From: a virus
Lineage: Duplodnaviria; Caudoviricetes
Reading direction: 5' to 3' (one strand)
Length of the DNA: 59,195 nucleotides
Virus record (IMG/VR): IMGVR_UViG_3300008448_000086
Span: 1 to 59,195 of that record
Shown here: positions 8,266-58,383 of the stretch, piece by piece
Position numbering within the stretch: position 1 is the first letter of the stretch
Layout: each line of letters starts with the position of its first letter
Position numbers and translations under genes: made by a program
Notes under the pieces: generated by a model
What the model was told of the DNA's origin: nothing
What the model saw: the letters and a program-made list of their open reading frames with translations, nothing else
Database searches by the model: none

Positions 8266-11200
8266 CTAGAATCCGCCATCGCCTAAAGCTCCTGCTCCGC
8301 CTCCTAAGCCTCCTGTCCCTAAAGCTCCTGCTCCACCTTCGAAACCTCCTGTTCCTAAAGCTCCTGCTCCACCTCCATATCCGCCACCTTTCTTCTTTTT
8401 TTTCTGCATTTCGCGCTCAAACTGCCTTTGCTTAGCCTCTATGTCTTTCAGCATCATATTAGACCATTTCCTGGCATCACCTGTCATCATGCTAAGCGCA
8501 TATCCATATTTACCACCAAGAATTTTTAGGTTAAATATTATTGAATATGCCTTTAGTGCCGCTGCTGTATAAAGTTCATCCTTGTCAATCTCCTTGTTTT
8601 CTACAGCCTCCTTTCGAAGCTCGTTCCATGTCTTTGCGAAAGATACAAGTTGCACAAGCTCTGAAGATGCGGTAATAGTAGCAGCAGTTTCTTCCCAATC
8701 CTTGGTAGCCTCTCCTGTATAATAATGCCTGTCAAGTGCTGTAGCGTAGTCTTCCCCATGTATGATGTCTATTGGTCTAATGTTATAAACGTCAAACCAT
8801 ACGCTTTCTACCTCTTTTATCTTTCTTTTACGCTCTTCTATCTCTTTTTTAGTCAATCCTTTTTCAGCAAGTTTAGCTACAGCGTCCTCCTTCCAAAGAT
8901 TAAATAAAGCGAACCCTCCTGCCATCTTTATTCCGTAACTCGTTTGAGGGTCTAAGGAAACAGAAAGAGCAGCGCCTGTAAGGTCTCTATAAATATTATC
9001 TTTCTGCTCTTTAAACATTTGTTTCATCTTATAAAGTTGCCTTTCCCAAAACTTTGGATTAAGAGCCTTTTTACGCACATCTTCTTTATCTTCTTCTTCA
9101 CCGGCAAGCATGATAACACCTGTTGCTGTAACAAACAAAAGACCTGTATATTTTCTTGTCAATGTATATTGTATAATCGGAATTAGTTGCTCGAAAACAG
9201 CACTATTTAATTTAATTGCTCTGTCTTTAAATGATAACCTACTGTTTAATGAGAACGCCTCTTTTATATTGCTCATAAAAGCACTATGTTGAACACCTGC
9301 ATATCCTTGCAAGAATCCTGTAACAAGAGCCGTTACATCATCTTTTTTTATAGTAAACCAAGCTCTGTCTGTTTTAAATATTCTATTAAGCAAGTTTCTT
9401 ACACCTCTGCTTAAGAATCCACCAGTTGCTCCTGTACCAACCGCAACAGCCGTACCTACAGGACCTCCTATAAGAGTACCTGCTACGATTCCGATGGTAG
9501 GAACCATACCTGGGTTAATCCTTAATGGGTCTCTGGTAAATGACGATAATCCATATTGCTTATCAACAAACGAGTCTGCAACAGAAGACGCTTTTTCTAC
9601 GGTGGCCAAATTCAATGCCCTATAGATACCTCTTTCATCTTCAAATGCCTTATGGTCGAAATCCTCTCCTGTTAATCGCTTGAACGCAGTTTCAAACCTA
9701 ATCATCCATGCTAGCTTTTTAGGTCTGATATCCTGCCACCCAATTAATTTCTGCTCTCTTTGAAGCTGTTCTGTAGACTTTGAATATTCGTAAATATAGT
9801 TGTCAGGATACAAGTTCATTGTTCTCGCTATTTGAGAACCAGTAAACTGGACAACCTTCATGTAGTCTTTCCACTCAAATTTACCTTTTGGCGTTCTGTA
9901 CGCAAGATTTCTTGGGTCAATAAGCCTCCATGTCTGACCAGGCATTTCTCTGTTTGCAGACGCTAACGCAGATGCTGTTTTTAATATATTAACAGGATAT
10001 TCGAGAGCAAATTGCCTTATTACAGATATAAGATAACTCTTTGCGGTAAACGATTGTATCCCCGACAGAGCCTTAAACATAGTCCCATAACTATCGCTAA
10101 GAGACTTTTCATTTTTTAAGAGATTTGCATTAAGTCTTTCTGTTGCATAAAGCTCTATACCTTGCAAATACCTTGCTGCAAACAAATCTCCGTCTGCTTC
10201 AGCCTTTTTAGCAGCTTCATTGATACCTTTAATGTAATCAAGATATGGCTTTACTTCAGCTAATAGATACAGCGATTTTATGTTATTGAACAGTACTCTG
10301 TTGCCATCCAAATCAAGCGCTCCAACATTACCCCTTCTTGACTGAAGCATGCCATTTGCAAGACCTCCATACTCAAATCCTCCGTTCAGGTAATTTTCCG
10401 TATCCGTGATTTCAGTTACAGCCTTGTCTTGACGTACTCTTCTTGGGAAATAGTTTTTAAGGAATCCTTTTAAGTTTCCAGATATGACCATTGCAGCCTC
10501 GGTAAGACCTTCTGTCTCATTAATTACCTGCCTCCAAATGTTTAAGCCTTCTTTTTGCTTAGGACTTAATAACGCCATCAACTGGCCTTCATTCAATCCG
10601 GCAAGCGTTGTTGTTCCATTATTAGTTAACGCAGCATAAGCGATTGTATTGACAAGGTTATCGTAATTCTGTTCAACATCAGCCTTGTATGTACCAGGAG
10701 ACTTATAATGCTCAGCCATTGTCTTATCTGAAAATATAGGTCTTCCATTTTCATCCGTCTTAACGCCTATTATATTTCTCTGAAGAACTACATCAATAGG
10801 AGTTTCTCCTTCTGCAAGGTTGGATATATCATCTATTTGATTGGCTATTATTGTTGTCATCCTAACGGATATATCATGCAACAGCCTTGCCTGATATCCT
10901 CTCTTTGTAAGTTCTTTTAGTTTAGCGAATAACAAATCCAATCCTGCTCCATATTTAGAACTAACAGCAGCTATAGCTTTCTTGATAGCCTTATGATTGC
11001 TATTGTCTGCAAATGCAAGCATTGCTGACCTTAACTGCTCAAGTTTAGGTTGCGTTTTATTCATTGCAGCTTCTTGATGACCAGACATAGGGCCGAATAT
11101 ATCTCTTTCAAGCATACCCATGTCAAACTCATCTTTTTCAATTCCTGCAAGTTCTACGTCTAACTGATGAATCCTTAATGTTGCAAGGTTGTTCTTTATT

Positions 11201-14200
11201 GCTTCAGGAGACACACTACCGCCTTCTACATCTGTTAAAAGACGAGCTGTTTCTCTAAGTGCATTAACAAGTCCACTTGAAGAGAACTTGGCTCTTTTTT
11301 CTGAAAGATTTTTAGCCCACTCGCTGGTTACTGTTTCAATCTTATACTTGATAGCAGATATATATTCTTTGTAAGCATCATAGTTATAGTTTCCGTCATT
11401 ATAAATATCATCAAGTGCATTATTTAATGACAGCAGCTTTGATGGCTTGTTTTCTGCTAAATAATTTAAGTAATTATCAGTAAGATAATGATTCAGCATC
11501 CTTAAGAACTGATTATAAAGGTCTGTGCTTTTTATCTTGTTTCTTAAGTTAGATACAGGAGCAGCCTCTGTAACAGCCCCTCTTCCTAGTTCATAATCAG
11601 CCAATAACTTAGATACACTTACCCTTACGAATGGCTTGCCGTCTGTTTCTCCTCTGCTGCTTATTTTATCTTTAAAAACATCGGGGACTTGTGATTCGTT
11701 ATCGTAAGTAAATGTAACAATATTTCCAGCCTGCATGTCCCTAACCTGCTCTTCTAGCGTTGGCTTCCCGATTTCCTCTGCGCCCTCTGGAGCTTGCTGT
11801 GCTTTAGCCGTAACCACAGGAGACGCTAGCTCTTTTTTCATTTGAGCAATCCTGTTAGAAAGCGAACCTCTAACATCTTGTATCTTATCGGATACCATTT
11901 GGTCTATTGGCTTCGGAAGAGCTGCTCTTAACTCATCATATTTCTGCTGTAGCTGTGTTTGTTGTTCAGGAGTAAAAGCATTCGCCATGCTCTTCTTTTC
12001 TGCTATATTATCCATTGCAGACTGAAGACGCATAAGAGATTTAAGGTCTGATAAATCCAATGCACCTGTCTTAACTTTTTTATTAAGATTTGTAAGTGTA
12101 GTATTTAACTTATCAAACTCTGTTTTAGGCGCTTGAGTGTTTGGAGCTGTTATAGTATTTAGCACATTAAGCGCAGCGTCAATCTTTGTATTATCACCTT
12201 TAGCTATCTGTCTTAAATGCGTATTAAATAAGCTCAATTCTTCAAGCGTAGCATTACTCCTATCCCAATCATTTGGGCTTACTGACAGAATATTTGCTAT
12301 TTTAGGGATAAGTTCTCCTGTATATTCTGTTTTGGTTTTAGACTTTATCTTATTAATAAGTCTTCCCATATCATCTATCATCTTCCTTCTGTATCCTTTC
12401 TCTACGATAGCAGATATTTCTCTTGAAGCCTCATCCATTGATGCCTGAAGGTCTGGGCTTTTATCAAATACAACGCTCTGGATTTCTCCTACAATTTTAT
12501 TAACCTCGTTTGGCGTCAACTCCATTCCTCTGCCAAAAGCAGCGTTCATTGCTTTGAACATGTCTCTTAGAGAAGCCACCATCTTCTTTGAGTTATTAGA
12601 CAGCTGGCCTATACCTTTTATTTGGCTTGCTACAAGGATTGACATATATTTCCTTGCTGACATGTTCACCATTTCAGCTTCCAAAGGAGATATCTTTTCG
12701 GTTCTTGGGAAAGCAGCGTTAACAGCATCTCTAGCTATACCAGATGCCGCTTTAACAAGAGTTATAGATGGTATATTTACAGGATAGTTCCCTCTTGCAT
12801 ACATGGAATCTATCTTGTTTATAAGTTCAGAAAGTATGTTTTTATAAGCTTTAGTAGGAGTTGTCTTACCATCCTTCTTTGCTTTGTTTGCTTTAACTAT
12901 GTCATCGGCTATTTGCTGTGCTGCATCAACCAAAGACCTTACTTGTGGAGTAGCAAACATACCCATCACTTGAGCTTCAGTTTGCGCTGTTCTTTCTTGC
13001 CCTCTTAACTCATTAATCTTCTTATCAAGTTCCTGAGCAAGCACATTATCAGGCTCGATATCCTTTATACCAAATTCTCTTTTATTAGCATTTATATATT
13101 CTATAGCTTTACCAAATGCGCTATATGCCGCTTCATCAACATTGCCAAACCTATTCATCTCGGCAGCCATAATTCTATCGAGAAGTTCTTTTATTTTAGG
13201 CCTTACCCCTTTCTCGAAATCAGCTACTTTTCTGTTGTACGCTTTTTCAATTATTGATGTAACATTTGCTGTAACCTCATCTATGTTTTCTTCAGAGAAT
13301 GGCTTAGCAAATACCGCATCTTCCATCTCTTTCATTATCTTTCTAAACTCAGCATCTGTATATTTAAGGTCTTTCCCAAGCTTAGCGTTCATCGCCTTAA
13401 ATATGTCATTTACAGCTTTTCTTACAGCCTTAACATTTTCAAATATTTTAGCACCTGCTCTTGCCTGCTGTCTCATTAAGTCTGCTATGTACTTTCTTGT
13501 AGACATAGTAACTTGCTCCACTTCTTGAGCAGACATTTTTTTAGCACTAGGATATGCTGCATTAACAGCATCTCTAGCTATAGACTTAGTAAGTTCAATC
13601 ATTATTTGCGGAGATGCAGCTTCTGGCACTCCTCCAGCCTCGTACATTTTTTGTATAGCTTTTTGAACAGTAGAAAATACCTTCTGATAAGCTACTAATG
13701 ATGACTTTTCTGTATTTTTTAAGCTTTCTGCTACTCTATTTGCTATAGTAACAGCACCTTGTATTCTTGGATTTGAATAAATCTGATTTATCCTTGTTTG
13801 CCTTTGCTGTTCTTTTATCTGCTCATCCGTCATGCCGGCCATTACACCAACCTTCTCTATCTCAGCAACTTTTTTCATTGCATCAGTAACATCCTTCTCG
13901 GTGTAGTTGTTATCTGCTGCAACCTTCCTGATGGCATCCTGAAGAGCCATACCACCTTTCACTAAAGCCTTTAATGCCTTTACCATCGTCTGGATGGCAG
14001 CTAAAGGTATAACCCTTGTAGCATCACTAAGCTTACCTGAATTAAGTTCTTTCCCGATAGCCTTATCAATACCATCAAGAAAGTTAAATACCTTTTCAAG
14101 ATTTGTAGGCTCTTTAGTATCGGCTGTTAATAGCTCATCTACATTGACTGGAGCAGCTTCCGCTACGGGTGCAGCCTCTGCCGTTGGAGCAGCAGGTGCA

Positions 14201-17200
14201 GCAGGAGCAGTATAGCCGGTATCAGTAATCCATTGCTTAACCTTATCAACAACAGGTTGACCTAGTTGCCTTACAGCACGGTCTTCACCTTCTGTTACTT
14301 GCTGAGCTAGTTCGTCCATCAATTGAACCTCCTGACCAGGATTTATTGTCCTAGTATAGTTTTGCATGGCAGGAGTCTGCTCTGGAAGAGCTGTTATTTC
14401 TTGGACGGCTTGTTGCGCTTGGCTGCCGAAATTGCGATTGCGAGTATCTGGGCTTGGCTGCGCGGTCTCCCCGACTGCCCCTTCTGCTTGCCTTTCTTGA
14501 GGTTGTCCTTCTTGAGTTCCCGTAGGTTGTACGATATCGCTTGGTTGACCGACTTCTTGCTGCGGTCTTTCGCTGATTTGAGTGGCATCTTGTGGAATTT
14601 GAGTTTGAGTAATAGGAGTTGTTTCTGTTACAGGTGCTGCTTCAGCAGGAACTTGTCCTATAATTTCACCTGTATCTGATATAATATTTCTTTGTCTTGC
14701 AGGAGCTTCTGCCTTTACCTTATCTACCTCTGCATTAAGGCCTGCATCATCTGTATAAATCTTTACATTACCGGCAGCTACCTCTTCCTTCACTTCCGGT
14801 GTATTCATCACACTCTTTACCCCATCAGGAGTTGAAGTAAATACAACACCTGGCTGTATCTCGATGGTGGCAAGTGGCGTAGTTCCGTTGACTACACCTT
14901 CTATTTCCTTCTCCTTAGCTGCAATCTGCTTCTCAACAGCTTTTCTTGCAGATGGGTCCGTTACGTTATTCAGTGTATTTTTTAACTCGACAACCTCTTG
15001 ACTAAGAGATGCAAATATCTGCGTCTGCTGAGGATTCAATCCTATCTGCCTGGCTTCTTCGATAGTTTTAGCTACCGTCTGCACTTCCTTCATTCCTTCA
15101 CCAAGAGTCTCCTCATCCATATCATTTGCAAGGGCATCCAGTTGTACGCCTGCCATTGCAGCAGTTTCTCCATTTTTAATAATTGATGCAGCGACGGATT
15201 GTGTTCTTACACTTGGAATATTCTTTTTATCAAACAAGGCTTTGTACGAAGAAGACACGCCTAAGCTTGCACCCCCAAGGATACCACCAACTGCGCCTCC
15301 TTCAATAGCTGCATTCATAGCATCTTTTGAGAAGAAAGCCTGCGTAAAACCTAATTTAGCATCTGCTCCTGATGACAATTCAGATGCTGTCTGCCAAGCC
15401 TCTTCAAGAGCGTTAGATGCAATACCAGTCCCTATCTGCCCTAGTCTTTTAGACACGGGCGTTTTAGCTGCCTTAAGTCCTGACAAAGGAGCAAACATTC
15501 TCTGTACAAGTACCTCTGACAGAACAGTAGGGAAGTTCTTTATAAAAGATTCCTGACCTGCTGCTCTTGCAGCTTCCATATCACCTGTATTCTCTAGCAC
15601 TCTCTCCATTACACCACCGCTATTTTCAATGCTTTCTGAACCAAAAGCTATAATACCACCTATGTATGGATTTTTAGTTAGAGCTGTTGTAAGCATACCT
15701 GCTGCCATTGAAGGACCTGACTGAGCAATGGATTGCGCCCAGTACCCTGGCTTAAACCAATTCTGACCTAATGGAAGCTTTTCTATGGAGTAGTTAAGTT
15801 CTGCTGTCTTACCTGAATACTTCATGGCATCAATAGCATCAGCCTCAAGTCCAAGAGCATTTAATACAAGAGCTGTTTTACTCTTAAGTGAGCCAAGTGC
15901 CGACATGCCAGTTTCGGTAAGTATCTTACCAATAGCAGTTGTGCCAACCATGCCACTCATGCCACTCATATCAATGAGCGACTGAGCATAGCCTTTATTC
16001 TGTTCTTCTCTTGCCTTTGTTTTGCTGTCAATTATAGAGCCTATATCTTTTGTGAACTGGTCTACTTGAGCCTGATTAAGTCCTTTTAAATAGGTCTCTG
16101 CCTCTGCCTTAAACGCAACATCCATCTCCTTATTTATCCTCTTAACAGCATCATTTGTCTTTGATACTTCTATTTTAATGTCAGCAGCTATGCTGTCAGC
16201 TATCTGGTCGTATTTAGGATTTACGAACTGAGCATATTCTGTATCAAATATCTCTTTGGCTCTTCTTTCAAATGACTCCTGAAGTGCCGGCTGATAGATT
16301 CCTGTAATTCCTTCAAGCTGCTTCATTGCCTTATCTTGTGCAGCAGCCCAATAGAAGTTAGCGTCAACAGAAGCGTCTGAAATAGCCGAAGAATACTTTT
16401 CCTGTATCTTCCTTACCTTTTCTTGCAGAAGCCTCTCTTCTGTCTCTATTTGCCCTTTAAATCTATTTTTGACATCCGTTTGCTTACTTAACAAGAATGC
16501 TTTCTGTTGAGCTTCAGTACTACCTCCTGTCATCTTCTTGGCTATATCATCTCTTCCTTGAAAAGTAGAAAGAATAGTATTTAAATTTTGCTTATCGCCT
16601 ACCTTACTCCATAAAAATGTTTTCAGGTATCTTCCTGCATTGATTCCTTGTGCAGAAATAGCCTCATCCATATCCTTCCTCAACAACCCTTCGTCGATAT
16701 ATTCTACGCCTGCTGTATTCTTCTTGATGTACTTTTCTACGTTACCTCCGAACTTTATGATATCATCAAAGCTACCAAACAGATAATCTGATATTTTATC
16801 AGGTACTTTGTTTTTTACTAAATCATTGATTACGCTGTTCTTCTGTATTAATGCCTTCTGCTCATTATTTGCAAGCTCGGATTTGAATTGCTCGGTCTCT
16901 GCTTGACTACCAAATGCAGCAGGAGTTTCCCTAAAGAAACTTCCTTGCGTAGAAACAGATAATCTTTTATTTGCCTTATTAGTTTTTGCTATTGTCGCAT
17001 GCTGTTCAAATGCCATTTCGGCTCCTGACAAATCACCTATTTCAAGCTTCTTTGCTTTCTTGGTCGGTAATACCTGTTGTTGCTTCTTAGGCTTTATAGG
17101 CTCTGTAATAGCTGATATATCCCCAAACTTAGGTTGCTGAGGAACTATCGCAGGAGCTGGAGTAACAGTTTGATTTGTTTTAGGAACAGGTTCTTGAAGT

Positions 17201-17256
17201 CCATCCAATTGCTGCTCCTGACCTAGTTGTTCTTGGGTGAGTTGTTGTTCTGCCAT
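8266..17256 (-). CDS. Giant internal virion (ejection) protein, 2996 aa
   Basis: Helical A/K/E/Q-rich; hydrophobic GxxxG segments; last of three internal-protein genes after the nozzle gene; own TATATTTG box at 17268-17261. Confidence 0.75.
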   Translation of the reverse strand: MAEQQLTQEQLGQEQQLDGLQEPVPKTNQTVTPAPAIVPQQPKFGDISAITEPIKPKKQQQVLPTKKAKKLEIGDLSGAEMAFEQHATIAKTNKANKRLSVSTQGSFFRETPAAFGSQAETEQFKSELANNEQKALIQKNSVINDLVKNKVPDKISDYLFGSFDDIIKFGGNVEKYIKKNTAGVEYIDEGLLRKDMDEAISAQGINAGRYLKTFLWSKVGDKQNLNTILSTFQGRDDIAKKMTGGSTEAQQKAFLLSKQTDVKNRFKGQIETEERLLQEKVRKIQEKYSSAISDASVDANFYWAAAQDKAMKQLEGITGIYQPALQESFERRAKEIFDTEYAQFVNPKYDQIADSIAADIKIEVSKTNDAVKRINKEMDVAFKAEAETYLKGLNQAQVDQFTKDIGSIIDSKTKAREEQNKGYAQSLIDMSGMSGMVGTTAIGKILTETGMSALGSLKSKTALVLNALGLEADAIDAMKYSGKTAELNYSIEKLPLGQNWFKPGYWAQSIAQSGPSMAAGMLTTALTKNPYIGGIIAFGSESIENSGGVMERVLENTGDMEAARAAGQESFIKNFPTVLSEVLVQRMFAPLSGLKAAKTPVSKRLGQIGTGIASNALEEAWQTASELSSGADAKLGFTQAFFSKDAMNAAIEGGAVGGILGGASLGVSSSYKALFDKKNIPSVRTQSVAASIIKNGETAAMAGVQLDALANDMDEETLGEGMKEVQTVAKTIEEARQIGLNPQQTQIFASLSQEVVELKNTLNNVTDPSARKAVEKQIAAKEKEIEGVVNGTTPLATIEIQPGVVFTSTPDGVKSVMNTPEVKEEVAAGNVKIYTDDAGLNAEVDKVKAEAPARQRNIISDTGEIIGQVPAEAAPVTETTPITQTQIPQDATQISERPQQEVGQPSDIVQPTGTQEGQPQERQAEGAVGETAQPSPDTRNRNFGSQAQQAVQEITALPEQTPAMQNYTRTINPGQEVQLMDELAQQVTEGEDRAVRQLGQPVVDKVKQWITDTGYTAPAAPAAPTAEAAPVAEAAPVNVDELLTADTKEPTNLEKVFNFLDGIDKAIGKELNSGKLSDATRVIPLAAIQTMVKALKALVKGGMALQDAIRKVAADNNYTEKDVTDAMKKVAEIEKVGVMAGMTDEQIKEQQRQTRINQIYSNPRIQGAVTIANRVAESLKNTEKSSLVAYQKVFSTVQKAIQKMYEAGGVPEAASPQIMIELTKSIARDAVNAAYPSAKKMSAQEVEQVTMSTRKYIADLMRQQARAGAKIFENVKAVRKAVNDIFKAMNAKLGKDLKYTDAEFRKIMKEMEDAVFAKPFSEENIDEVTANVTSIIEKAYNRKVADFEKGVRPKIKELLDRIMAAEMNRFGNVDEAAYSAFGKAIEYINANKREFGIKDIEPDNVLAQELDKKINELRGQERTAQTEAQVMGMFATPQVRSLVDAAQQIADDIVKANKAKKDGKTTPTKAYKNILSELINKIDSMYARGNYPVNIPSITLVKAASGIARDAVNAAFPRTEKISPLEAEMVNMSARKYMSILVASQIKGIGQLSNNSKKMVASLRDMFKAMNAAFGRGMELTPNEVNKIVGEIQSVVFDKSPDLQASMDEASREISAIVEKGYRRKMIDDMGRLINKIKSKTKTEYTGELIPKIANILSVSPNDWDRSNATLEELSLFNTHLRQIAKGDNTKIDAALNVLNTITAPNTQAPKTEFDKLNTTLTNLNKKVKTGALDLSDLKSLMRLQSAMDNIAEKKSMANAFTPEQQTQLQQKYDELRAALPKPIDQMVSDKIQDVRGSLSNRIAQMKKELASPVVTAKAQQAPEGAEEIGKPTLEEQVRDMQAGNIVTFTYDNESQVPDVFKDKISSRGETDGKPFVRVSVSKLLADYELGRGAVTEAAPVSNLRNKIKSTDLYNQFLRMLNHYLTDNYLNYLAENKPSKLLSLNNALDDIYNDGNYNYDAYKEYISAIKYKIETVTSEWAKNLSEKRAKFSSSGLVNALRETARLLTDVEGGSVSPEAIKNNLATLRIHQLDVELAGIEKDEFDMGMLERDIFGPMSGHQEAAMNKTQPKLEQLRSAMLAFADNSNHKAIKKAIAAVSSKYGAGLDLLFAKLKELTKRGYQARLLHDISVRMTTIIANQIDDISNLAEGETPIDVVLQRNIIGVKTDENGRPIFSDKTMAEHYKSPGTYKADVEQNYDNLVNTIAYAALTNNGTTTLAGLNEGQLMALLSPKQKEGLNIWRQVINETEGLTEAAMVISGNLKGFLKNYFPRRVRQDKAVTEITDTENYLNGGFEYGGLANGMLQSRRGNVGALDLDGNRVLFNNIKSLYLLAEVKPYLDYIKGINEAAKKAEADGDLFAARYLQGIELYATERLNANLLKNEKSLSDSYGTMFKALSGIQSFTAKSYLISVIRQFALEYPVNILKTASALASANREMPGQTWRLIDPRNLAYRTPKGKFEWKDYMKVVQFTGSQIARTMNLYPDNYIYEYSKSTEQLQREQKLIGWQDIRPKKLAWMIRFETAFKRLTGEDFDHKAFEDERGIYRALNLATVEKASSVADSFVDKQYGLSSFTRDPLRINPGMVPTIGIVAGTLIGGPVGTAVAVGTGATGGFLSRGVRNLLNRIFKTDRAWFTIKKDDVTALVTGFLQGYAGVQHSAFMSNIKEAFSLNSRLSFKDRAIKLNSAVFEQLIPIIQYTLTRKYTGLLFVTATGVIMLAGEEEDKEDVRKKALNPKFWERQLYKMKQMFKEQKDNIYRDLTGAALSVSLDPQTSYGIKMAGGFALFNLWKEDAVAKLAEKGLTKKEIEERKRKIKEVESVWFDVYNIRPIDIIHGEDYATALDRHYYTGEATKDWEETAATITASSELVQLVSFAKTWNELRKEAVENKEIDKDELYTAAALKAYSIIFNLKILGGKYGYALSMMTGDARKWSNMMLKDIEAKQRQFEREMQKKKKKGGGYGGGAGALGTGGFEGGAGALGTGGLGGGAGALGDGGF
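8272..8390. repeat. Three Gly-rich repeats (GGAGALG[T/D]GG) at C-terminus of the giant protein
   Basis: cctaaagctcctgctcc occurs three times. Confidence 0.85.
14394..14588 (-). CDS. Small basic protein overprinted in an alternative frame inside the giant gene (MPLK..QAIAIA type, DUF6496-like)
   Basis: MPLKSAKDRSKKSVNQAISYNLREL...QAQILAIAISAAKR resembles a stand-alone small phage protein family; A/C-rich leader with A at -3. Confidence 0.7.
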   Translation of the reverse strand: MPLKSAKDRSKKSVNQAISYNLRELKKDNLKKGKQKGQSGRPRSQAQILAIAISAAKRNKPSKK

Positions 17257-17289
17257 GTGTCAAATATACTAATATTTGTAAATGATAGG

Positions 17290-20165: not shown

Positions 20166-23100
20166 TCAACTATTTGTTAAAGGTGATGGAATATATTTCA
20201 AAGATACAGAAATTAATCTCTGTTCCGTTGTTAATGAATTTGTTAGTGCTACCTGTGCATATAATCCCTTCATGCTGTCTCCCTGATACTTACCTCCTGC
20301 ACTATTCTCGTCTCTTTTGATGGTAGCGTTAAACTTGTTCTCCTTGCTGTTGATGGTAAATGCTCCTACCGTCTTTTGGAAGTCTGAAACAGCTAATCCT
20401 GACAGCTGATTAGTTAATGGTCCAGTAGTTACCGTTCCTGTCCAAAGGCCGTTAGATAACTCCTCTATAGCCGTATAAGTCTTCTTCAGTTGCAGATTGC
20501 CATTGAATACTGTTGTTACAGATGAGCTTTGCTGCTCTCCAAAAAAGTTGTTTCTGGTAGCTGAATCGTGTATATATATATGCCATCCTGGATTAATAAC
20601 GGCAGCTGGATTTGAATACAAACTATATATAAACCCATTAATAAACTGAAATGATTGAGCTTTAGTAAAACCATAAAAACTTTCAAAAAACTTATCAGAT
20701 TCAGAATATGATACTATATAATTTGTAATAACATTATTGCTTGGATTTATGCTTCCAATAAGCATAATTACATTTCTGTTCTCATAATTAAAACAACCGT
20801 ATCCATAAGAATTGATATTGATATTGGTATTAGCCCATGACGCAAGGTCAAATGTGTCGCTTATATTAGTAATTCCATCAAGGCTGGCTCTTACAATCGC
20901 CTTATTGTTGGCGTCTATAAAATAGTCTCCAAAGTCGGTAGACACAAGGCTGCTTCCGTACTTATCAATACCATACTCTCCTGAGTAGTAATTAGGCTTA
21001 TTTAACAGCTTTTCAGATAAAGATACCTGTGTAGATGACGCATTATCAATGATGATACTTCTAAAAATAGGTATCATGGCTGTTTTATACAGCTGAAACA
21101 TTCTGATGAAGTTCTCCCTTGTCTTTAATCTAAGGATATCGCCAAAGCTAGCATCCGCCTCTTCAAAGTTTTCTGGATAAAATCTATTTAGATTATTTAT
21201 GTTTGTTCCGTAAATATAGGATTGAGAAAATCTCAACATTGCCGGGAAGTATTGCGTCTTGGCAGATTCATCAATAACAAGAGGTCTACCTTGACTCCAG
21301 ACACCACTTTCCCAAAAATCACTAAAGTTGGCATCCATACAAGTATATTCTGTATATTGAACAGAACCACCAAATTCACCAGTAACAAGCTTCCTTAATT
21401 TTGTATAATAATCGCCATCAGTAACCCTAATGATTGCAGGTTGAACACCAGCTCCTATTATTTGATTTTGCGCGGAACCATTATGAACAAGATTTCCATT
21501 AATATCAGTAACTACGTTAAATCTTTCCCCTATTTCATAATAAAAATTCTCGCTATCGTTTGAAATGACCGCTGCAGGCCTGAATATTTCAATTAAATAT
21601 TTATCATTTGTATTAAAAGATATATTCATTCCTGCAACGAAAGCTAATTTTAAATGAAAATCACTTCCGCCTTTTGCTACAACTCCTAGTATTTCATGGT
21701 CTTTTTGACCTACTACCACAGAGCTTGATGTAATATTTTTAATTATTCTAACCCTGTCACCCTTTACAAAAGACGTAGGCCCGTAATTTATTATTGTTCC
21801 TGATACAGGAACCTCTTGGCCATGCTGTATTATATTTTGAATATTTAGATATATATATGCAGCAGGAGTATTACTTGTTTCGTTTACTATACTAGCTTTT
21901 GTAATTAAAAACTTTGAAAACGAACTTGTAAGCTCTTTTGTTCTTACTAAATGATAATAACTTGCCCAAGAAGGAGGAGCGTGATTTATTTCAAGTTGCA
22001 CAGAAAATATTTTTGGCTGACCTAAAATCTCTTTATACTCCGGTATATCTACGGTTAAATTTTTGTTATTTCCTATGTAAACACCATTTGTCTTCCCGTC
22101 GCTACTATAATAAGCAATACCATACTTATATCTTCCTTTCCATTTAAGAGTAGAAACAGAATCTGTAGAATTCCCTGTAGCGCCAGTAAAAGGCTGAAAA
22201 GTAAAACCAATACCACCACCAACAAACTGGCTCGAAATAAAATAATGGTCAAAATTATTTAGTATAAAACGAAATACAGTAAGATTGCCTATGTTATTGT
22301 CTATTATTATCTCAACATTAGCGCTCGTAGAATTAAGCGCATCTCTTATGCTTACAATTGCATCATATAGTGTTTGGCCAGCAGTTACTGTGTAGTTTAT
22401 TGGCGGTTCAGGAACAGATACTAAGGTATTTATATCTAATGGGTCGGATTGGAATATATTAAAATTGAACGTAATAACATCTCCAGTATTTACAGTTCCG
22501 CTAATTTCAATAGATTGCTGCTGATTATAGTATGTGTAAGGAGGAGCTGTCGGGTCAAATAATATATTGTTATTTGAACCCTCTTGGATAGTAACACTAC
22601 CTGGTATTGCAGGAGTTGATTCAATAATTGATGATGTTACATCAAAGCTTGCAAGCCTAGGTAATCCCTCTTTAATGCCTCCATAAACAAGTGTATTCCC
22701 GTTAGCAAGCTCAAAAGTATTTGCTTCATCAGGGACATAATCAAAAAGCAAATTTCCTTCTTCTATATCTATAGAAAGATACGAGCCATCATTAAAAAAA
22801 GAATATTGATAAGCTGTATTATTTGCTAATGATAGTTGAGCTTTATCAATAGTTTCTATAAGGAAAAAGTCGCTCCATACGGATTCGATATTTACTCTCG
22901 CAGCAATTTCTATTTTTTTAATTAGCTTATCGCCTGTCTGAATAGTAACATAAATTCCATTAGCTTTTGTTCCATCGGCATAATAAGCTTCGTCATTGGC
23001 TTTTGTAGGCAATGGGACTTTGCTTATTGCACTCCATACACTTTTCTCTTCATCATCAAAAACAAACCTATACTTAAACTGAAACAGCTTTTTTCTGAGA

Positions 23101-23687
23101 TTATTTATACTTCTTCCAGGAGCGTCAAAATAACTACAAGGAGGATGGCTTATTGGCGGAGCTTTAATTACCTTAAAATAATCGAATATTACATCATTCG
23201 TAGATGCAAGTATTGGTAAATTTGTTATGTTGAATTTTAATGGCCTTTTTAATGGGTCAATAAAATATACTAAATCACCTCCATTGTCCCTGTAAATAAT
23301 TTTAATATCTTTTATAATCTTATTAGGATTATATTGGCTATCTGTTCCCCATTGAAAAATACTTGTTCCTCCTGTATTTGTTCTATCCTGAAACAATACC
23401 GTATGATTGCCATTTGTTACGTCTACTAATATTATTCTATGATATTGCTGAGTATTGAATGTAAAATAAATAATCCTTTGATTTGTTCTGTCAAAATGAG
23501 AGCCGCATATCCAATCAGTACCTCCAGTTGGAGCTGGTGCGCCTGGTATTAATCTGTTCCCAGGAAGGTTAACCAACCCCTCAGAACCATTGCTTACGTT
23601 CATGGCATACGTATACGCTCCATTTGGCAAAAGCTCAGGAGACGCATCCGTATTCATTCCCTTATTAAAACCTCTTACATCTACCAT
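20166..23687 (-). CDS. Tail nozzle/muzzle ('stabilization') protein
   Basis: 1173 aa; FNKGMNTDASPELLPNGAY..AMN start, FQFKYRFVFDDEEKSVWS, YGIAYY, GEYGI motifs as in Bacteroidota podophage muzzle proteins. Confidence 0.75.
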   Translation of the reverse strand: MVDVRGFNKGMNTDASPELLPNGAYTYAMNVSNGSEGLVNLPGNRLIPGAPAPTGGTDWICGSHFDRTNQRIIYFTFNTQQYHRIILVDVTNGNHTVLFQDRTNTGGTSIFQWGTDSQYNPNKIIKDIKIIYRDNGGDLVYFIDPLKRPLKFNITNLPILASTNDVIFDYFKVIKAPPISHPPCSYFDAPGRSINNLRKKLFQFKYRFVFDDEEKSVWSAISKVPLPTKANDEAYYADGTKANGIYVTIQTGDKLIKKIEIAARVNIESVWSDFFLIETIDKAQLSLANNTAYQYSFFNDGSYLSIDIEEGNLLFDYVPDEANTFELANGNTLVYGGIKEGLPRLASFDVTSSIIESTPAIPGSVTIQEGSNNNILFDPTAPPYTYYNQQQSIEISGTVNTGDVITFNFNIFQSDPLDINTLVSVPEPPINYTVTAGQTLYDAIVSIRDALNSTSANVEIIIDNNIGNLTVFRFILNNFDHYFISSQFVGGGIGFTFQPFTGATGNSTDSVSTLKWKGRYKYGIAYYSSDGKTNGVYIGNNKNLTVDIPEYKEILGQPKIFSVQLEINHAPPSWASYYHLVRTKELTSSFSKFLITKASIVNETSNTPAAYIYLNIQNIIQHGQEVPVSGTIINYGPTSFVKGDRVRIIKNITSSSVVVGQKDHEILGVVAKGGSDFHLKLAFVAGMNISFNTNDKYLIEIFRPAAVISNDSENFYYEIGERFNVVTDINGNLVHNGSAQNQIIGAGVQPAIIRVTDGDYYTKLRKLVTGEFGGSVQYTEYTCMDANFSDFWESGVWSQGRPLVIDESAKTQYFPAMLRFSQSYIYGTNINNLNRFYPENFEEADASFGDILRLKTRENFIRMFQLYKTAMIPIFRSIIIDNASSTQVSLSEKLLNKPNYYSGEYGIDKYGSSLVSTDFGDYFIDANNKAIVRASLDGITNISDTFDLASWANTNININSYGYGCFNYENRNVIMLIGSINPSNNVITNYIVSYSESDKFFESFYGFTKAQSFQFINGFIYSLYSNPAAVINPGWHIYIHDSATRNNFFGEQQSSSVTTVFNGNLQLKKTYTAIEELSNGLWTGTVTTGPLTNQLSGLAVSDFQKTVGAFTINSKENKFNATIKRDENSAGGKYQGDSMKGLYAQVALTNSLTTEQRLISVSLKYIPSPLTNS

Positions 23688-27080: not shown

Positions 27081-28445
27081 TTAAGCACTCAGGCGCACGA
27101 AGCGGTTTGCAGCGAACACACGCAGACCAGCATAGCACAGGTGGTGTACGTTCAGTTCAGCAACATCGCTTGTAGGACTCTTAGCGAAAGCACCAGTTTC
27201 CCAAATGTGCAGGTCTTTGCCATTCACATTGTTGTAGGTAACTTCGATAGAGTTGTAACGCTCTCCAGTTTGAGGGTCACGTCCTTGAGCCATCGGAACT
27301 ACGATACCGTAGTTTTTGTACTGATGGTCAGTAGGAGTAGCACCGTATACAGCTTCAGGAGAGAACGGCATGTACTTCTTAATGTGGAAAGTATAGCCAT
27401 CCATAGTGATAGAACCGAAACCGTACATAGCAGCAGCTTCTTTGCTACCACCTACAGTACCCCAAAGGATAGCACCAGCATCGTACAGGTCAAACAGTTC
27501 GTCATCCAGCTCTTGACGTAAGAACACGTCAGCAAGCAGGTGATTCTCCATAGAACCTCCGTTGAAGTCTAAAGCACGAGTTACTTCGTGTAATTTAGCT
27601 CTGTCAAGAGAACCAGCAGTATAAGATACGCCAGTACCACGGCTTTCGATTTGGTCGATAAGACCGATAGTGTTCTTAGAAGTAGCAGAAGCGTTTGTGT
27701 TGGTAATTTGCTTACCGAAAACAAGAGTAAACTCTTTGTTGTTCATGTAACGCTTAACAGCATCTTCGAGACCTTTGTAAGAGTAATTATCACCAAACCA
27801 GATTTCTTCAATCATAGCACGGTCAGTTACTCTCCAGTCTTCGCGGATTTCAGAAACGTAGTTCAGAACTTCTTCAACACGAGGAATCAAAGCATCTCCC
27901 TTAGAAGAAGCTTCGCCTACCGCAGCTTGTCCGCGGAAGAGAATCCACTCGTTAGCATCCAGACGACCATCTACAGTAGCAGACTCAAATTGTTGAGTAG
28001 AGCTAAGAGGACGTACAGTTGCAGTGTGCGCACCAGCAGAAGTTTTGTCAACTGAAACTACTTTACCTTGGATACCAGTAGAAGCGATTTCAACTACTTC
28101 ACCTACACGGATAGGAGATTTAGTTCCGCTGTCATAGTGAGAACCAGAAGTCAAAGTGAAAGTAACAGCAGAACCATTGGTTGCACCAGTTACGTTAGCT
28201 TGTACTTGAACAGCTTGGTGTAATTTACCCAAATCTTCCCAGTGACGGATAGTTTGAGATTTCACCTGTCCTTTGAACCCGAGCATTTCCAACAGCATAG
28301 TGTAGTTCTGAGAACCATACTTGCTGATGAATTTAGGGTAGTACTGAGGTTTTAAGATACTAAGGTCACTAACGATACCTCTCGTTAGACCTGCGCCAGG
28401 ATTTACAAATGCTGACGGTTTCTCTGAGGCTGAATTGTATGCCAT
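27081..28445 (-). CDS. Major capsid protein
   Basis: 454 aa after scaffold; strongly biased codon usage; YGSQ, GFGSITMDGYTFH, HHLCYAGLRVFAANRF motifs of Bacteroidota podophage MCPs. Confidence 0.85.
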   Translation of the reverse strand: MAYNSASEKPSAFVNPGAGLTRGIVSDLSILKPQYYPKFISKYGSQNYTMLLEMLGFKGQVKSQTIRHWEDLGKLHQAVQVQANVTGATNGSAVTFTLTSGSHYDSGTKSPIRVGEVVEIASTGIQGKVVSVDKTSAGAHTATVRPLSSTQQFESATVDGRLDANEWILFRGQAAVGEASSKGDALIPRVEEVLNYVSEIREDWRVTDRAMIEEIWFGDNYSYKGLEDAVKRYMNNKEFTLVFGKQITNTNASATSKNTIGLIDQIESRGTGVSYTAGSLDRAKLHEVTRALDFNGGSMENHLLADVFLRQELDDELFDLYDAGAILWGTVGGSKEAAAMYGFGSITMDGYTFHIKKYMPFSPEAVYGATPTDHQYKNYGIVVPMAQGRDPQTGERYNSIEVTYNNVNGKDLHIWETGAFAKSPTSDVAELNVHHLCYAGLRVFAANRFVRLSA

Positions 28446-29618: not shown

Positions 29619-29750
29619 TTAATACTTGGTTTTACCTTTCATCTTGCCCATAGCAGTATTTGCTTTTTTGGACATAGTTGCAGGCTTACCTTGTTTCTTT
29701 GCCATTTTCTCTTGCATGGACTTAAATGCTGCGTTCTTTTTTGCTTTCAT
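29619..29750 (-). CDS. Very small Lys/Met-rich basic protein
   Basis: MKAKKNAAFKSMQEKMAKKQGK... from ATG 29750. Confidence 0.6.
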   Translation of the reverse strand: MKAKKNAAFKSMQEKMAKKQGKPATMSKKANTAMGKMKGKTKY

Positions 29751-29781
29751 TTTATTTGATTTTAATTGATTACGAAGATAC

Positions 29782-30159
29782 TTATTTTCTGTATTTAGCA
29801 ACCTTTTTAGCTACGCTTTTTGGTTGTTTTACAAACTGCTTACCTGCTTTGCTTCCTTCTGCTTTTGCTCTGTTAGTTGCTGCCTTCTCGGATGCAGATA
29901 ACGAACCCCAAGCTTTCTTCGGTAAATACCTGCGTTTACCTTCTGATGGCTTGCCTGATGATGTGGTCCATTCCTGCTTAGTCCATTTAGCTAACTTGTT
30001 ATCAGATGATTTAGCACCTTTATAACCACCACCTTTCTCTTTGTATATTTTAACAGCTAACTGCATTGCACGAGCCGAGTGCTTACCGCCCATCTTAGCT
30101 TTTGCCTGCTGCTTGGCTTTCTCCCAAAGAGCAAGATTAGTTTTTGTTGCTGTACTCAT
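29782..30159 (-). CDS. Small basic protein (DUF5872-like)
   Basis: HSARAMQLAVK.YK.KGGGYKG..L.KW.KQEW.T..RYLPKKAW; ATG at 30159. Confidence 0.7.
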   Translation of the reverse strand: MSTATKTNLALWEKAKQQAKAKMGGKHSARAMQLAVKIYKEKGGGYKGAKSSDNKLAKWTKQEWTTSSGKPSEGKRRYLPKKAWGSLSASEKAATNRAKAEGSKAGKQFVKQPKSVAKKVAKYRK

Positions 30160-30160
30160 A

Positions 30161-30454
30161 TTAGTATTTACCTTGTCTTGATTTAGGAGATGACTTAGTA
30201 GAACCACCTTTACCAGCCCAAAGCACCTTACAAGCCCAATATCTTGCTCCCATCTTATCGTTAGCACTACTGCACTTATGCCTTGCTTTAAATGACTTAC
30301 GAGCAGCAGCAGAATAGTTATGACCGTAACCTTCTGCTCCGAAGTGGACAATCTTTTCTTTGCTTCCCTGACAAGCCTTAACCATCATCTTCTTACCAGG
30401 TCTGGTAGAAGAGCGAGGCTTATTACAGGGCATTTCAGATTTCTTTACTGCCAT
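30161..30454 (-). CDS. Small basic protein (KKMMV..HFG..RKSFKARHKC..YW family)
   Basis: Recognisable motif family of phage and large-virus small basic proteins. Confidence 0.7.
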   Translation of the reverse strand: MAVKKSEMPCNKPRSSTRPGKKMMVKACQGSKEKIVHFGAEGYGHNYSAAARKSFKARHKCSSANDKMGARYWACKVLWAGKGGSTKSSPKSRQGKY

Positions 30455-30461
30455 AACCTAT

Positions 30462-30722
30462 TTATTTTAAGTAAGCTTTATTAGTTTTTCTGTAATATAC
30501 AAAGTCACTAGGACTTAATCCCTGCTCTTTAGCTGCCCTGTCCTTTGCTCTCTCTTCAGCTGTCATCATATTACGCTTCTGACCTTCCTTCGTCAGCGTC
30601 TTCCCATCTGGTCTTAAATGACCTCTTTTTATCAGTATCTTAATCGCAAGAGATTTACTTCCAACCTGAGCCGTTAGCCGGTTGACCAACTGATTGCGAC
30701 CCATGAACTTTTGCGTCTCCAT
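30462..30722 (-). CDS. Small basic protein
   Basis: 86 aa, LT.EG.KR.MMTAEERAKDRA motif. Confidence 0.65.
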   Translation of the reverse strand: METQKFMGRNQLVNRLTAQVGSKSLAIKILIKRGHLRPDGKTLTKEGQKRNMMTAEERAKDRAAKEQGLSPSDFVYYRKTNKAYLK

Positions 30723-49273: not shown

Positions 49274-50301
49274 ACATAACGTATGGTGCTATACGCTCGT
49301 TTTAATGGCGTATAGCACGTGTTACAGGTAGTAGGGATTTATACCACAAAACTTAATTAGAAGTATAAACAAAAAAGAATTTAAAAATGAGCGTAGGCAA
49401 AAAAGAAAAAATTAACGTATTATCATTATTTGATGGTATGAGTTGTGGACAGATTGCATTGAATAAAGTAGGAATTGAGTATGAAAATTATTTTGCTTCT
49501 GAAATAGAACAAGCACCTATTAAAGTTACACAACACAATTATCCTAATACTATACAATTAGGAAGTGTATTAAACGTAAAAGGTTGTGATTTGCCAAATA
49601 TAGATTTACTAATTGGTGGTAGTCCTTGTCAATCTTTTTCAAATGCTGGAAAAGGAGAAGGTTTTGATGGGAAAAGTGGTTTGTTTTGGGAATATGTACG
49701 AATATTAAAAGAAGTAAATCCAACTTATTTTTTACTTGAAAATGTGAAAATGAAAAAAGAATGGAAAGATATTATTTCTAAAGAATTAGGAGTTGAACCG
49801 ATAGAAATAAATAGTTCTTTAGTATCTGCTCAAAATAGACCGAGATTATATTGGACAAATATACCAAATGTTGATGTTCCAAAAGATAAAGGACTTTTAT
49901 TTAAAGATGTATTAAATACTGATTATGAATTTAAACCTTTAACTAAATGGTTTTTTTCTAAATGGGGAGATAAACAAAAAATAGATACATTAAAGACAAT
50001 TGATGCTGAAAAATCATTTTGTTTAACTACAAATAAAAGCCACTCAAAAAACTATTACTTAACACCTGATAAAACTATGGCTCGTATGCTTGAAAGAGAT
50101 GAAGTAGAAAGATTGCAAACTATACCAAATGGATATACAAATATTGTTTCAAAAACAGACGCACATAAAATGATAGGAAACGGATGGACAGTAGATGTGA
50201 TTGCTCATATTTTTTCTTTTTTAAGAGGGGAGGAAAAATTTTTAAATTCTTTTTCAAACGAAAATGTTTAATCGAAGCGATACACCCCTATTACCTGTAA
50301 C
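49274..50301 (+). mobile_element. attC-like gene cassette carrying the C5 MTase
   Basis: acataac + 11-bp hairpin + gttacagg upstream; ccctattacctgtaac downstream complementary to the cassette start; AT-rich cargo. Confidence 0.5.
49387..50271 (+). CDS. DNA (cytosine-5) methyltransferase
   Basis: LSLFDG (I), GGSPCQ (IV), ENV (VI), QNRPR (VIII), ERLQ (IX), GNGW (X). Confidence 0.92.
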   Translation: MSVGKKEKINVLSLFDGMSCGQIALNKVGIEYENYFASEIEQAPIKVTQHNYPNTIQLGSVLNVKGCDLPNIDLLIGGSPCQSFSNAGKGEGFDGKSGLFWEYVRILKEVNPTYFLLENVKMKKEWKDIISKELGVEPIEINSSLVSAQNRPRLYWTNIPNVDVPKDKGLLFKDVLNTDYEFKPLTKWFFSKWGDKQKIDTLKTIDAEKSFCLTTNKSHSKNYYLTPDKTMARMLERDEVERLQTIPNGYTNIVSKTDAHKMIGNGWTVDVIAHIFSFLRGEEKFLNSFSNENV

Positions 50302-52469: not shown

Positions 52470-54290
52470 ATGCCGAATGTAACGCTGTTCAAAGACATCA
52501 CCGATACAACCAATCCAGTTATTCAGTCGGTCGATAAAGTGCTTGGCTTCATTCGTGATGGCAGATGGAAAGATAAGGTAGAGGCGGTCAGAAATGCACT
52601 CCCTAACCAGCAAGATAGCCTTAAAATTGCACTCCCATGTATCCTTTATGCTGGAGAGTTCACTATAAAGTTAACAACCGATAAGGGCGTTGAAACTTGC
52701 AGAAAGGATGAGTGCCTGTCCAAACACTCCCACCTTGTACCCATCGACATTGACGATGTTGACAACATAGACGAAATAATCGAAACGCTTAAGAAGGACC
52801 AGTTCATCCATGCCTTATGGAAGTCCCCTTCAGGCAAAGGCTGTCATGGACTGATTAAAATAGGGGATGGCAAGTCTCATCGCAGGCACTACACTGCCCT
52901 GATTAAAAAGTATCCCTTCCTTGACTCAACAGCAAGGAATGAATCTAGGATACTGTTTGCGTCTTATGACCCTGACCTTTATTACAACCCACGCAGCAGC
53001 ACATATTACGATGTAGAGGATGAAGAGAAGCCTCAAGGCGAAGGAGGCATGGCTATATCAGGTCAAGGCACTACAGACTACCGTAAGGTGGATGTGGCTG
53101 CTAAGATGGTAAGGTGCGCTCCTGATGGAGAGAAGCACAACATCCTGCTTAAAGCAGCTGTACTTATGGGAGGATATGTAGCTGCCGGCAAGGTAGAGCG
53201 AGAGGTCGCTGAGACACTTCTTTACCATGAGATAGGTAAGCGCAATGTAGACAACCTTGCAACAGCTCAAAAAACCATAAGCGATGGGATAACCTATGGG
53301 ATGCTGATGCCCATCCACGAAACAGAGCAGGCATTTAGTGAGGCTGTAGAGATGGTGGCTGCTGCGGATGACGAGCTTAAATTCCTGAGTAATCTGGATG
53401 ATGATGAGATTTACATCAGACGCTTCAGGCATGGCCTTATAGAGTCCGGCAAAGGCTTTGGGTATGAAGAGCTGGATAAATACTTTGTGCTTAAGGAGGC
53501 GGAGTTCTATGCCTTTGTAGCGCATTCTAACGTAGGTAAGACCACCAGTATCTTATGGTTCATGCTTGTATCAGCTGTCAATCATGGGTGGAATTGGATG
53601 GTATACACAGGAGAGAACACCCCTGCATCCATCAAGATGAAGCTCATAGAGTATCTCACAGGAAAGAGAATAAAAGAGGTTCCTGAGCATTGGCTAAAGC
53701 ATGCTATTCAGTTCGTCAATGACCATTTCTACCTGATAACAAATGACAAAACTTACGAATACAGCGAGCTTTTACAATTTGCTGAAACGCTGTCAAGAAG
53801 AAAGAGTCTGAAGGGAATCTTCATCGACCCTTATAACTCACTGAAAGCCAACGTCACCATGTCCAAGAGCAAATATCAGTATGATTACGAGGCCTATAGC
53901 GATATGCTGGCATTTACCAACAGGACAAAGATTACGCTGTTCCTGAGCGCCCATACCAATACAGAGGCTCAGCGTCTGCTTGATAATGATGGGAACCAGA
54001 AGATGCCTCATGCTACGATGGTGGAAGGTGGGGTTGCACTGTATAACAAATGCCACAACTTTATCGTGTTCCATCGAAAGATTAAGGATGAGGACAACTG
54101 GATGTATACGGAGATTAGCGTAGATAAGGTAAGGAATAAGGATACCGGAGGGCAGCCTACCATCAAGGGTAAGCCTATCCGACTGAAGATGGCAAGAGGA
54201 GTTGAGTTCGTAGACGAGCAAGGCGCACTTCCATTTAACAGGGACTTCCTCCCTACCTACAAGGAAGCACAAGAAGAAAACTATTTTTAA
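52470..54290 (+). CDS. Primase-helicase (BT4734/VirE-N-like primase domain + SF4 helicase)
   Basis: IDIDD, SPSGKG.H, ASYDP N-domain; Walker A AHSNVGKT, Walker B IFIDP, KVRNKDTGG. Confidence 0.8.
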   Translation: MPNVTLFKDITDTTNPVIQSVDKVLGFIRDGRWKDKVEAVRNALPNQQDSLKIALPCILYAGEFTIKLTTDKGVETCRKDECLSKHSHLVPIDIDDVDNIDEIIETLKKDQFIHALWKSPSGKGCHGLIKIGDGKSHRRHYTALIKKYPFLDSTARNESRILFASYDPDLYYNPRSSTYYDVEDEEKPQGEGGMAISGQGTTDYRKVDVAAKMVRCAPDGEKHNILLKAAVLMGGYVAAGKVEREVAETLLYHEIGKRNVDNLATAQKTISDGITYGMLMPIHETEQAFSEAVEMVAAADDELKFLSNLDDDEIYIRRFRHGLIESGKGFGYEELDKYFVLKEAEFYAFVAHSNVGKTTSILWFMLVSAVNHGWNWMVYTGENTPASIKMKLIEYLTGKRIKEVPEHWLKHAIQFVNDHFYLITNDKTYEYSELLQFAETLSRRKSLKGIFIDPYNSLKANVTMSKSKYQYDYEAYSDMLAFTNRTKITLFLSAHTNTEAQRLLDNDGNQKMPHATMVEGGVALYNKCHNFIVFHRKIKDEDNWMYTEISVDKVRNKDTGGQPTIKGKPIRLKMARGVEFVDEQGALPFNRDFLPTYKEAQEENYF

Positions 54291-58370: not shown

Positions 58371-58383
58371 TACATATTTTTAG

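Follow-up and report, generated by a model that had tools for sequence, protein, structure and literature searches.

A DUF6496-family reading frame embedded in a giant virion-module gene of a crAss-like freshwater phage

An embedded DUF6496-family reading frame

The DNA studied here, called the window throughout, is a 59,195-base virus record (IMG/VR record IMGVR_UViG_3300008448_000086) with an estimated completeness of 86%. It carries a giant gene, and wholly contained within this gene, on the same strand, lies an ATG-started open reading frame (ORF) whose predicted product is a small basic protein of the DUF6496 family (Table 1). The start of the embedded ORF is offset by 2668 nucleotides (nt) from that of the giant gene, which places it in the +1 frame. 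A preliminary description made from the sequence had reported a 64-residue peptide at 14394-14588 in an alternative frame of a 9-kb gene, and its coordinates, the peptide, the quoted leader and the outer-frame peptide have all been verified. The content of guanine and cytosine (GC) is 0.54 at 14400-14599, compared with 0.35-0.45 nearby, and all three forward frames of the window are open across the ORF, which is a local oddity compared with its relatives. We consider it highly probable that the ORF is a true coding sequence, nested in the +1 frame of a giant gene in the virion module of a lake-water crAss-like phage.

The embedded peptide matches the Pfam family DUF6496 (PF20106) with 25.8 bits against a gathering score of 24 (E = 1.4e-5), residues 11-59 aligning to profile positions 3-50 of 58. 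A six-frame search of the record returned DUF6496 at 24.6 bits, the sole DUF6496 match in the record. The same model is matched by 61 of 77 aligned relatives at E <= 0.01, and residues L3, N21, L25, R43, Q47, A50, I51 and A52 are invariant across the 77 sequences. The length of the protein, 64 residues, falls within the size class of the family (~40-90 residues), and the protein has the same conserved C-terminal helix, a motif that we defined from alignments made here. As far as profile comparison can tell, these matches show that the embedded peptide is a DUF6496 member, and they bear out a likeness that had been recognised by eye. A search of PHROGs gave no match to the peptide below E = 0.03. 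In GenBank phages, a DNA search with 13600-15400 found nothing, and neither did tblastn with the peptide, where a low-complexity filter may mask a match. No mention of DUF6496 was found in the literature searched.

When 1.84 billion proteins were searched with an alignment profile, 270 representative clusters matched at E <= 0.001. The best 150 of the 270 contain proteins of 33-205 residues and no giants, and in a few of them (135-205 residues) the domain is C-terminal. A search for longer proteins returned 12 DUF6496 proteins of 125-471 residues, and in the five of these that were examined the domain lies at the C-terminus in four and at the N-terminus in one. In P0010, P0011 and P0015 it forms an in-frame C-terminal tail on unrelated proteins. 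One DUF6496-tailed protein resembles HNH-type nucleases in its Cys/His pattern, as judged by eye, and another, of 471 residues, carries PF11450. Two tailed proteins keep Met-Pro-Leu at the junction and so may be fusions or over-extended gene calls. Unlike these separate small proteins and C-terminal domains, the member described here lies out of frame inside a giant gene.

Scans with the peptide led to 11 viral and 80 metagenome loci, the latter being the best 80 of 197 relatives. We classified 90 of the 91 loci, omitting L007, whose inner gene encodes the same protein as that of L006 in another record (the same holds for L003 and L002). The ORF is embedded in 50 of the 90 loci, in the +1 frame in all 50; it is a separate small gene in 37 and partial in 3, two of which are cut at contig ends and one of which has a host frame that stops 55 codons past the inner stop. 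Host ORFs that are complete (n = 30) span 889-3862 codons. After incomplete ORFs and identical DNA had been dropped, the non-redundant set comprised 47 embedded copies including that of the window, 33 separate and 2 partial ones. All 47 of these embedded copies keep the ATG-started inner ORF intact, with peptides that are as little as ~50% identical, and embedded and separate copies have the N-terminal Met-Pro-Leu in common. The third frame contains at least one stop in 46 of these 47 copies, the exception being the window. A scan with a part of the giant protein yielded three viral contigs, and all three carry a 64-codon +1 ATG ORF, in giant ORFs of 3459 and 3510 codons. The preliminary description had named the lack of a family match together with stop codons in this frame of close relatives as what would speak against a gene; the match is present, and we found no relative with a stop.

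Dual coding and the start of translation

In this overlap the third codon position of the inner frame is the first of the outer frame, and the third position of the outer frame is the second of the inner. The hypotheses of inner and of outer constraint therefore predict different patterns of change. The mean pairwise difference at the first, second and third inner codon positions is 0.32, 0.23 and 0.46 among embedded copies and 0.26, 0.20 and 0.58 among separate ones. In 20 phylogenetically independent pairs with a DNA distance of 0.01-0.25, we counted 200 changes that are silent in the inner frame and alter the outer protein, 53 that are silent in the outer frame and alter the inner protein, 125 that alter both proteins and 0 that are silent in both frames. 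The inner-silent share of the first two classes is 0.79, compared with an expected 0.47 (p = 5.8e-25), and the 11 closest pairs alone give 52 inner-silent versus 13 outer-silent changes (p = 6e-8). The contrast is reversed in the alignable flanks of 300 nt that served as controls, with 25 versus 95 changes downstream (5 pairs, share 0.21) and 20 versus 87 upstream (6 pairs, share 0.19), at p ~1e-10 on either side. Judged by these substitutions, the inner frame is shown to be under purifying selection across the interval, and the outer frame to be constrained in the flanks. The synonymous-site check put forward in the preliminary description thus supports its expectation that the nested frame is the constrained one.

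The outer frame has been shaped differently. A T at the inner wobble position is the first letter of an outer Phe, Leu, Ser, Tyr, Cys, Trp or stop codon. T occupies this position in 2% of cases in embedded copies versus 25% in separate ones, and it is depleted even where no stop would be created (54 of 1667 versus 293 of 1173). GC at inner third positions is 0.68 in embedded and 0.43 in separate copies, and the GC excess of the ORF over its locus is 0.14 and 0.02, respectively. Across the embedded loci, the residues Q, E, P, G, A, S and T make up 70.3% of the outer peptide in the overlap versus 42.6% of the remaining host protein, in agreement with the earlier view of the main frame as a low-complexity Q/E/P linker, and hydrophobic residues make up 14.3% versus 30.5%. 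Composition and substitutions together show the outer frame, on this kind of evidence, to be a passenger in the overlap that is kept open and hydrophilic, and they suggest that it is translated and maintained as a hydrophilic linker. Because the depletion of wobble T and the composition of the linker explain the local GC peak without transfer, we interpret the peak as a by-product of dual coding. Horizontal transfer was considered as the cause of the peak and rejected; separate copies match their genomes, with an ORF GC of 0.449 versus a locus GC of 0.430.

In the accessible part of a study of Flavobacterium johnsoniae (Baez et al. 2019, PMC6847099), A at -3, -6, -12 and -13 is described as promoting initiation, and Bacteroidota-type starts as having no Shine-Dalgarno (SD) motif, adenines at -3 and around -12/-13, and little mRNA structure. 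Among the record's own genes, SD-like starts occur in 3 of 70, and A is found at -13, -12 and -11 in 61, 65 and 85%. The 44 distinct leaders of embedded copies have A at -13, -12, -11, -10 and -3 in 89, 82, 84, 73 and 91%, against a background of 36-38% at same-phase positions of host genes (binomial p 9e-7 to 4e-13). At least four of these five adenines are present in 86% of embedded leaders, compared with 7.9% of 4178 other out-of-frame ATGs. Host windows are predicted to fold more stably than embedded leaders, with energies from -30 to +20 of -6.02 versus -1.17 kcal/mol (Wilcoxon p = 1e-13). In the record studied here the start has four of the five adenines and a predicted minimum free energy of -0.1 kcal/mol; the mean of the giant gene is -6.78 kcal/mol over 582 windows, of which 99.5% are more stable. 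The embedded start therefore has what is expected of an SD-free start of the Bacteroidota type, and the leader, which had been called host-type, indeed shares the A-rich, SD-free and unstructured context of the record's other gene starts. Because the protein modules upstream fall into 10 unrelated clusters, this start signal tracks the inner ATG and not the outer protein.

The DUF6496 segment could also be reached by a programmed +1 frameshift, which would add DUF6496 to the N-terminal module as a tail, with termination at the inner stop, and would replace or accompany independent initiation. Such a product would resemble the proteins that do carry DUF6496 in frame at their C-terminus (among the 12 longer proteins and several of 135-205 residues), and in locus L021 the outer ORF stops soon after the inner gene. 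However, upstream of the ATG the inner frame stays open for only a few codons in the 47 copies (median 4, range 1-15), which leaves hardly any room for a conserved shift site (slippery sites were not searched for) and argues for independent initiation. The ATG itself is kept in every one of these copies, the Met-Pro-Leu N-terminus is also that of separate copies, and the base context and low structure are those of an initiation site. We regard a frameshift as quite improbable. Under independent initiation, the giant gene's own mRNA would serve both proteins: ribosomes would also start at the internal ATG, and late in infection the small protein would then be made alongside the giant one.

Several points weigh against a genuine, expressed gene. 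The length of the ORF by itself is within chance expectation, and +1 ORFs this long are not rare: outside the overlap, 358 kb of related host genes contain 3307 ATG-ORFs in the +1 frame, of which 47 have at least 48 codons and 22 at least 55. Most relatives were found with the small peptide itself, so that giant genes without the ORF could not appear, and scans that did not use the peptide turned up few giants, at first three of three with the ORF and then the same three plus one incomplete record. In the latter searches, a query with a single giant protein returned no further relatives, and an alignment query returned the three known loci and one record that ends before the region and hence has no DUF6496 match. 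All 20 pairs of the substitution test belong to one phage family. The ORF does form an island of identity (~0.88 versus 0.43-0.60 in its flanks), but the flank values come from a crude aligner. The motif TANNTTTG, which we take to be promoter-like, was not found on the minus strand between 14589 and 16766, so that expression depends on internal initiation on a long, already translated mRNA; in the whole window this motif is not enriched, with 75 found versus 64 expected. The case for translation is indirect, being built from sequence features, and one RNA run contains two contigs of ~160 nt that lie outside the ORF, at 14641-14798 and 15180-15339, where DNA carry-over is possible. Neither sequence nor fold searches of PDB and BFVD returned a relative of known function.

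These points would agree in part with an engulfed relic or a chance ORF, in which the giant protein would be the sole product and the DUF6496 frame would have ceased to be translated: +1 ORFs of at least 48 codons are not rare, the translation case is of the kind just described, and no promoter-like motif lies upstream. The embedded ORF stands above chance because it matches the family over the cut-off, is intact in all 47 copies despite their divergence, and accumulates changes that favour the inner frame, with the reverse in the flanks. Its ATG and start context also persist across the unrelated upstream module clusters. We give a relic or chance origin very little credence, and we read the ORF as a gene in what follows.

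Origin, mosaic surroundings and possible roles

In the more distant viral contigs L011-L015 the small gene stands alone, starting one base past the stop of a 433-codon gene, and the next gene, of 966-1263 codons, starts at its stop or no more than a few bases away. In L012 this downstream gene is weakly similar to the C-part of the giant protein (E = 4e-7), and the N-part of embedded loci has a homologue two places upstream of the small gene, in a gene of 754 codons (E = 1e-66). The order along 4408-11946 of L012 is N-part homologue, 433-codon gene, small gene and C-part homologue, and 4953-12787 of L009 carries a 430-codon gene, matched to the 433-codon gene by size only, followed by one fused giant gene. 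L021 is an intermediate, in which the host ORF stops 64 codons past the inner stop and the next genes are separate. Since the family is generally stand-alone and such intermediates exist, the small gene probably came first, and the frame of the giant gene is probably a newcomer over it. Neighbouring module genes would have fused or extended across this older partner, and the outer frame would have gained a linker from its DNA. The word overprinted, used in the preliminary description, therefore holds for the embedding and fails for the direction, as DUF6496 proteins are separate small proteins and are also separate in the more distant phages. The peptide tree does not bear on this order: it implies 2-4 changes between the embedded and separate states, but it is unrooted, is built from 61 columns, has 6 of 73 branches well supported, and is too weak to show the sequence of events from separate to engulfed.

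The giant gene is a mosaic. Compared with L005 and L006, the giant protein matches only from residue 889 on, with identities of 65% and 59% there and 35-41% further along, and its first 888 residues have no match in this comparison. Its N-part is nearest to L023 (52% over the whole length) and its distal C-part to L005, L006 and L016 (35-41%). L034 and L047 are 98% identical upstream of the island and 13% downstream, and L033 and L035 show 4-23% upstream and 74-82% downstream. When the modules of 48 loci are clustered by single linkage, those next to the junction are reticulate, one N cluster being combined with six C clusters and one C cluster with four N clusters. In three DNA metagenome runs (X2, X4 and X7) many contigs match only this stretch, at an identity of at least 88%, and then diverge, and the summed contig depth is 75-163 on the island versus ~6-15 beside it. 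Metagenome assemblies of these phages probably break apart at the conserved island. Within 14362-14731, contigs of many phages pile up and end or diverge at the borders of the embedded gene.

An island of this kind could be conserved as nucleic acid, perhaps as a joint where modules recombine or as an RNA signal, with the open frame being incidental. It often lies where relatedness switches, as in the two pairs above, the module clusters are reticulate around it, and in the three runs many contigs match it alone. However, variation is concentrated at the inner third positions (0.46 versus 0.23-0.32) and the contrast between silent and non-silent changes is specific to the inner frame, which points to selection on protein and not on nucleic acid. 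Separate copies of the protein also exist outside giant genes. A nucleic-acid element as the whole explanation is, in our view, very improbable. With a protein-coding gene as the preferred reading, a role of the DNA as a homology patch may be a side effect of the conserved island.

The embedded protein contains 19 Lys+Arg and 3 Asp+Glu residues. AlphaFold2, given the 77-row alignment, predicts helices at 11-29 and 45-57 with a Gly/Lys-rich loop between them (pLDDT 86.4), and this model is a confident helical hairpin; a homodimer prediction scored 0.00 and speaks neither for nor against a dimer. No PDB sequence match to the peptide was found, and nothing in PDB or BFVD reached E <= 0.001 with Foldseek; the top BFVD entries were small uncharacterised phage proteins at E ~0.3. 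From its charge, size and gene position only, we tentatively suggest that the protein may be a part of the virion that binds nucleic acid or is associated with the cargo, or may assist the giant protein. A broader reading, which we hold to be possible and rather doubtful, is that an engulfed ancient gene has two roles, as the source of a protein, for example a packaged partner that binds DNA or cargo, and as a homology patch for swaps between N- and C-modules. The small basic protein would be made in step with the giant cargo protein, and its selection-frozen DNA would be the site at which phages exchange N- and C-terminal modules. If this were true, the outer linker would be a newcomer on an old gene, the reverse of classical overprinting.

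The architecture of an embedded phage gene is known, and the present instance is a further variant. As with lambda Rz1 in Rz (Kongari et al. 2018, PMC6139136), the larger gene contains the smaller one completely, on the same strand and in another frame. In the available text of that survey, spanin genes are described in embedded, overlapping and separated forms, the inner gene is usually missed by gene callers, and the outer protein is disorder-prone across the overlap, which resembles the hydrophilic linker found here. The outer gene here is a 9-kb virion-module gene, unlike that of Rz/Rz1, and the inner gene appears to be the older partner. Unlike outer-membrane spanins (o-spanins), the embedded protein has no homology to them and no cysteine, and hence no lipoprotein signal, and unlike spanin genes its gene lies outside a lysis cassette, with virion genes as neighbours. 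An identity as o-spanin was rejected for the lack of a lipobox cysteine and for these neighbours. The family described here spans embedded, near-terminal and separate forms, whereas the survey, as far as its available text goes, found no family that mixes embedded with other forms (PMC6139136).

The arrangement is also a natural counterpart of a synthetic design called overlapping, alternate-frame insertion (Leonard et al., bioRxiv 10.1101/2024.11.07.622342). According to the accessible part of that preprint, the design is engineered and uses plasmid genes, whereas the overlap here is natural and is kept in dozens of phages; unlike in that insertion, the outer gene here probably grew over the inner one.

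Because standard annotation forbids genes within genes, gene catalogues largely lack a protein that dozens of abundant freshwater phages keep. The locus offers a clean natural case of constraint on an inner frame, with an outer frame that has persisted as a flexible linker. Because separate, near-terminal and embedded stages coexist in one family, the origin of the embedded gene can be traced, unlike in the spanin survey as far as its text is available (PMC6139136). It also gives a first context for DUF6496, namely a virion or cargo module in crAss-like phages of SD-free hosts. In practice, the frozen island breaks metagenome assemblies and marks frequent module boundaries in giant phage genes.

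The phage and its neighbouring genes

Judged by its predicted genes, the record is that of a crAss-like freshwater phage, and its host is probably a member of Bacteroidota. The stretch is present in lake and other freshwater runs from several studies. The positions of the features are collected in Table 1.

Table 1 Features of the embedded gene, its giant host gene and other typed genes of the window.
Feature	Position	Strand	Description
Embedded DUF6496-family gene	14394-14588	-	ATG, 64 codons and stop; +1 frame of the giant gene; isoelectric point (pI) 11.3
Outer-frame reading of the overlap	14392-14589	-	Giant-protein residues 890-955; hydrophilic linker rich in Q, E, P, G, T and A
Translation-initiation region	14589-14618	-	A at -12, -11, -10 and -3; no Shine-Dalgarno motif; predicted to be almost unstructured
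Giant outer gene	8266-17256	-	2996 codons; no known family; crAss-type cargo-gene position; mosaic
Muzzle-like virion protein	20166-23687	-	1173 residues; PF25729 crassvirus muzzle C-terminal domain, E = 3e-9, 37.6 bits versus 27
SU10-type major capsid	27081-28445	-	
BT4734-like primase	52470-54290	+	
C-5 cytosine methylase	49387-50271	+	
Basic ORF cluster	29619-30722	-	Four small ORFs of 60-125 residues, pI 10.3-10.6, in the structural module

The muzzle-like protein also matches phrog_14478, a virion structural protein, and two genes of 254 and 526 codons separate its gene from the giant gene downstream; the other large virion genes are mostly without a family. In PhiCrAss001, as described in the available part of the report by Bayfield et al. 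(2023, PMC10172136), the genes downstream of the muzzle encode cargo and RNA-polymerase-associated proteins, gp45-gp50. The layout here is similar, with a giant gene downstream of a muzzle gene in a record that has a crAss-type muzzle domain, an SU10-type capsid and a BT4734-like primase. Sequence and profile searches, however, found no similarity of the giant protein to a known family or a solved structure; neither the protein nor a four-sequence profile of its C-terminal 1060 residues matched Pfam, PHROG or PDB entries. Its earlier designation as an ejection gene thus stands as far as position goes, two genes past the muzzle-like gene, and lacks sequence support. In the available part of PMC10172136 an embedded small gene is not mentioned for those phages, and a literature search on crAss-like phages and overlapping genes showed nothing on such an arrangement among the 10 best-ranked of 76 matches.

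The C-terminus of the giant protein (8266-8400, minus strand) is a glycine-rich repeat tail that follows a run of Lys, and it is Gly/Arg-rich in the consensus of relatives. Further upstream the protein has hydrophobic, Gly-rich segments that look membrane-spanning. The motif TATATTTG lies at 17261-17268 on the minus strand, only 5 nt upstream of the ATG of the giant gene; if it is a Bacteroidota-type -7 element, the giant mRNA would be nearly leaderless.

The preliminary description had also tied the embedded protein functionally to the basic proteins at 29.6-31 kb, and we found no support for this tie. These proteins are basic but show no homology to the embedded one, and kinship was rejected on the lack of a Pfam link, a best blastp E of 0.02 over 41 residues and an hhalign probability of 0.2. 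One ORF of this cluster is weakly DUF5754-like (E = 0.001, below the cut-off).

ARAGORN found no tRNA in the window. At 58371-58410 on the minus strand, in the leader of the ORF at 57324-58370 (348 residues, RNase H-fold/exonuclease-like), there is a stretch that resembles a tRNA T-arm, GGTTCGAATCCC, which may be a tRNA fragment or the remnant of an attachment site.

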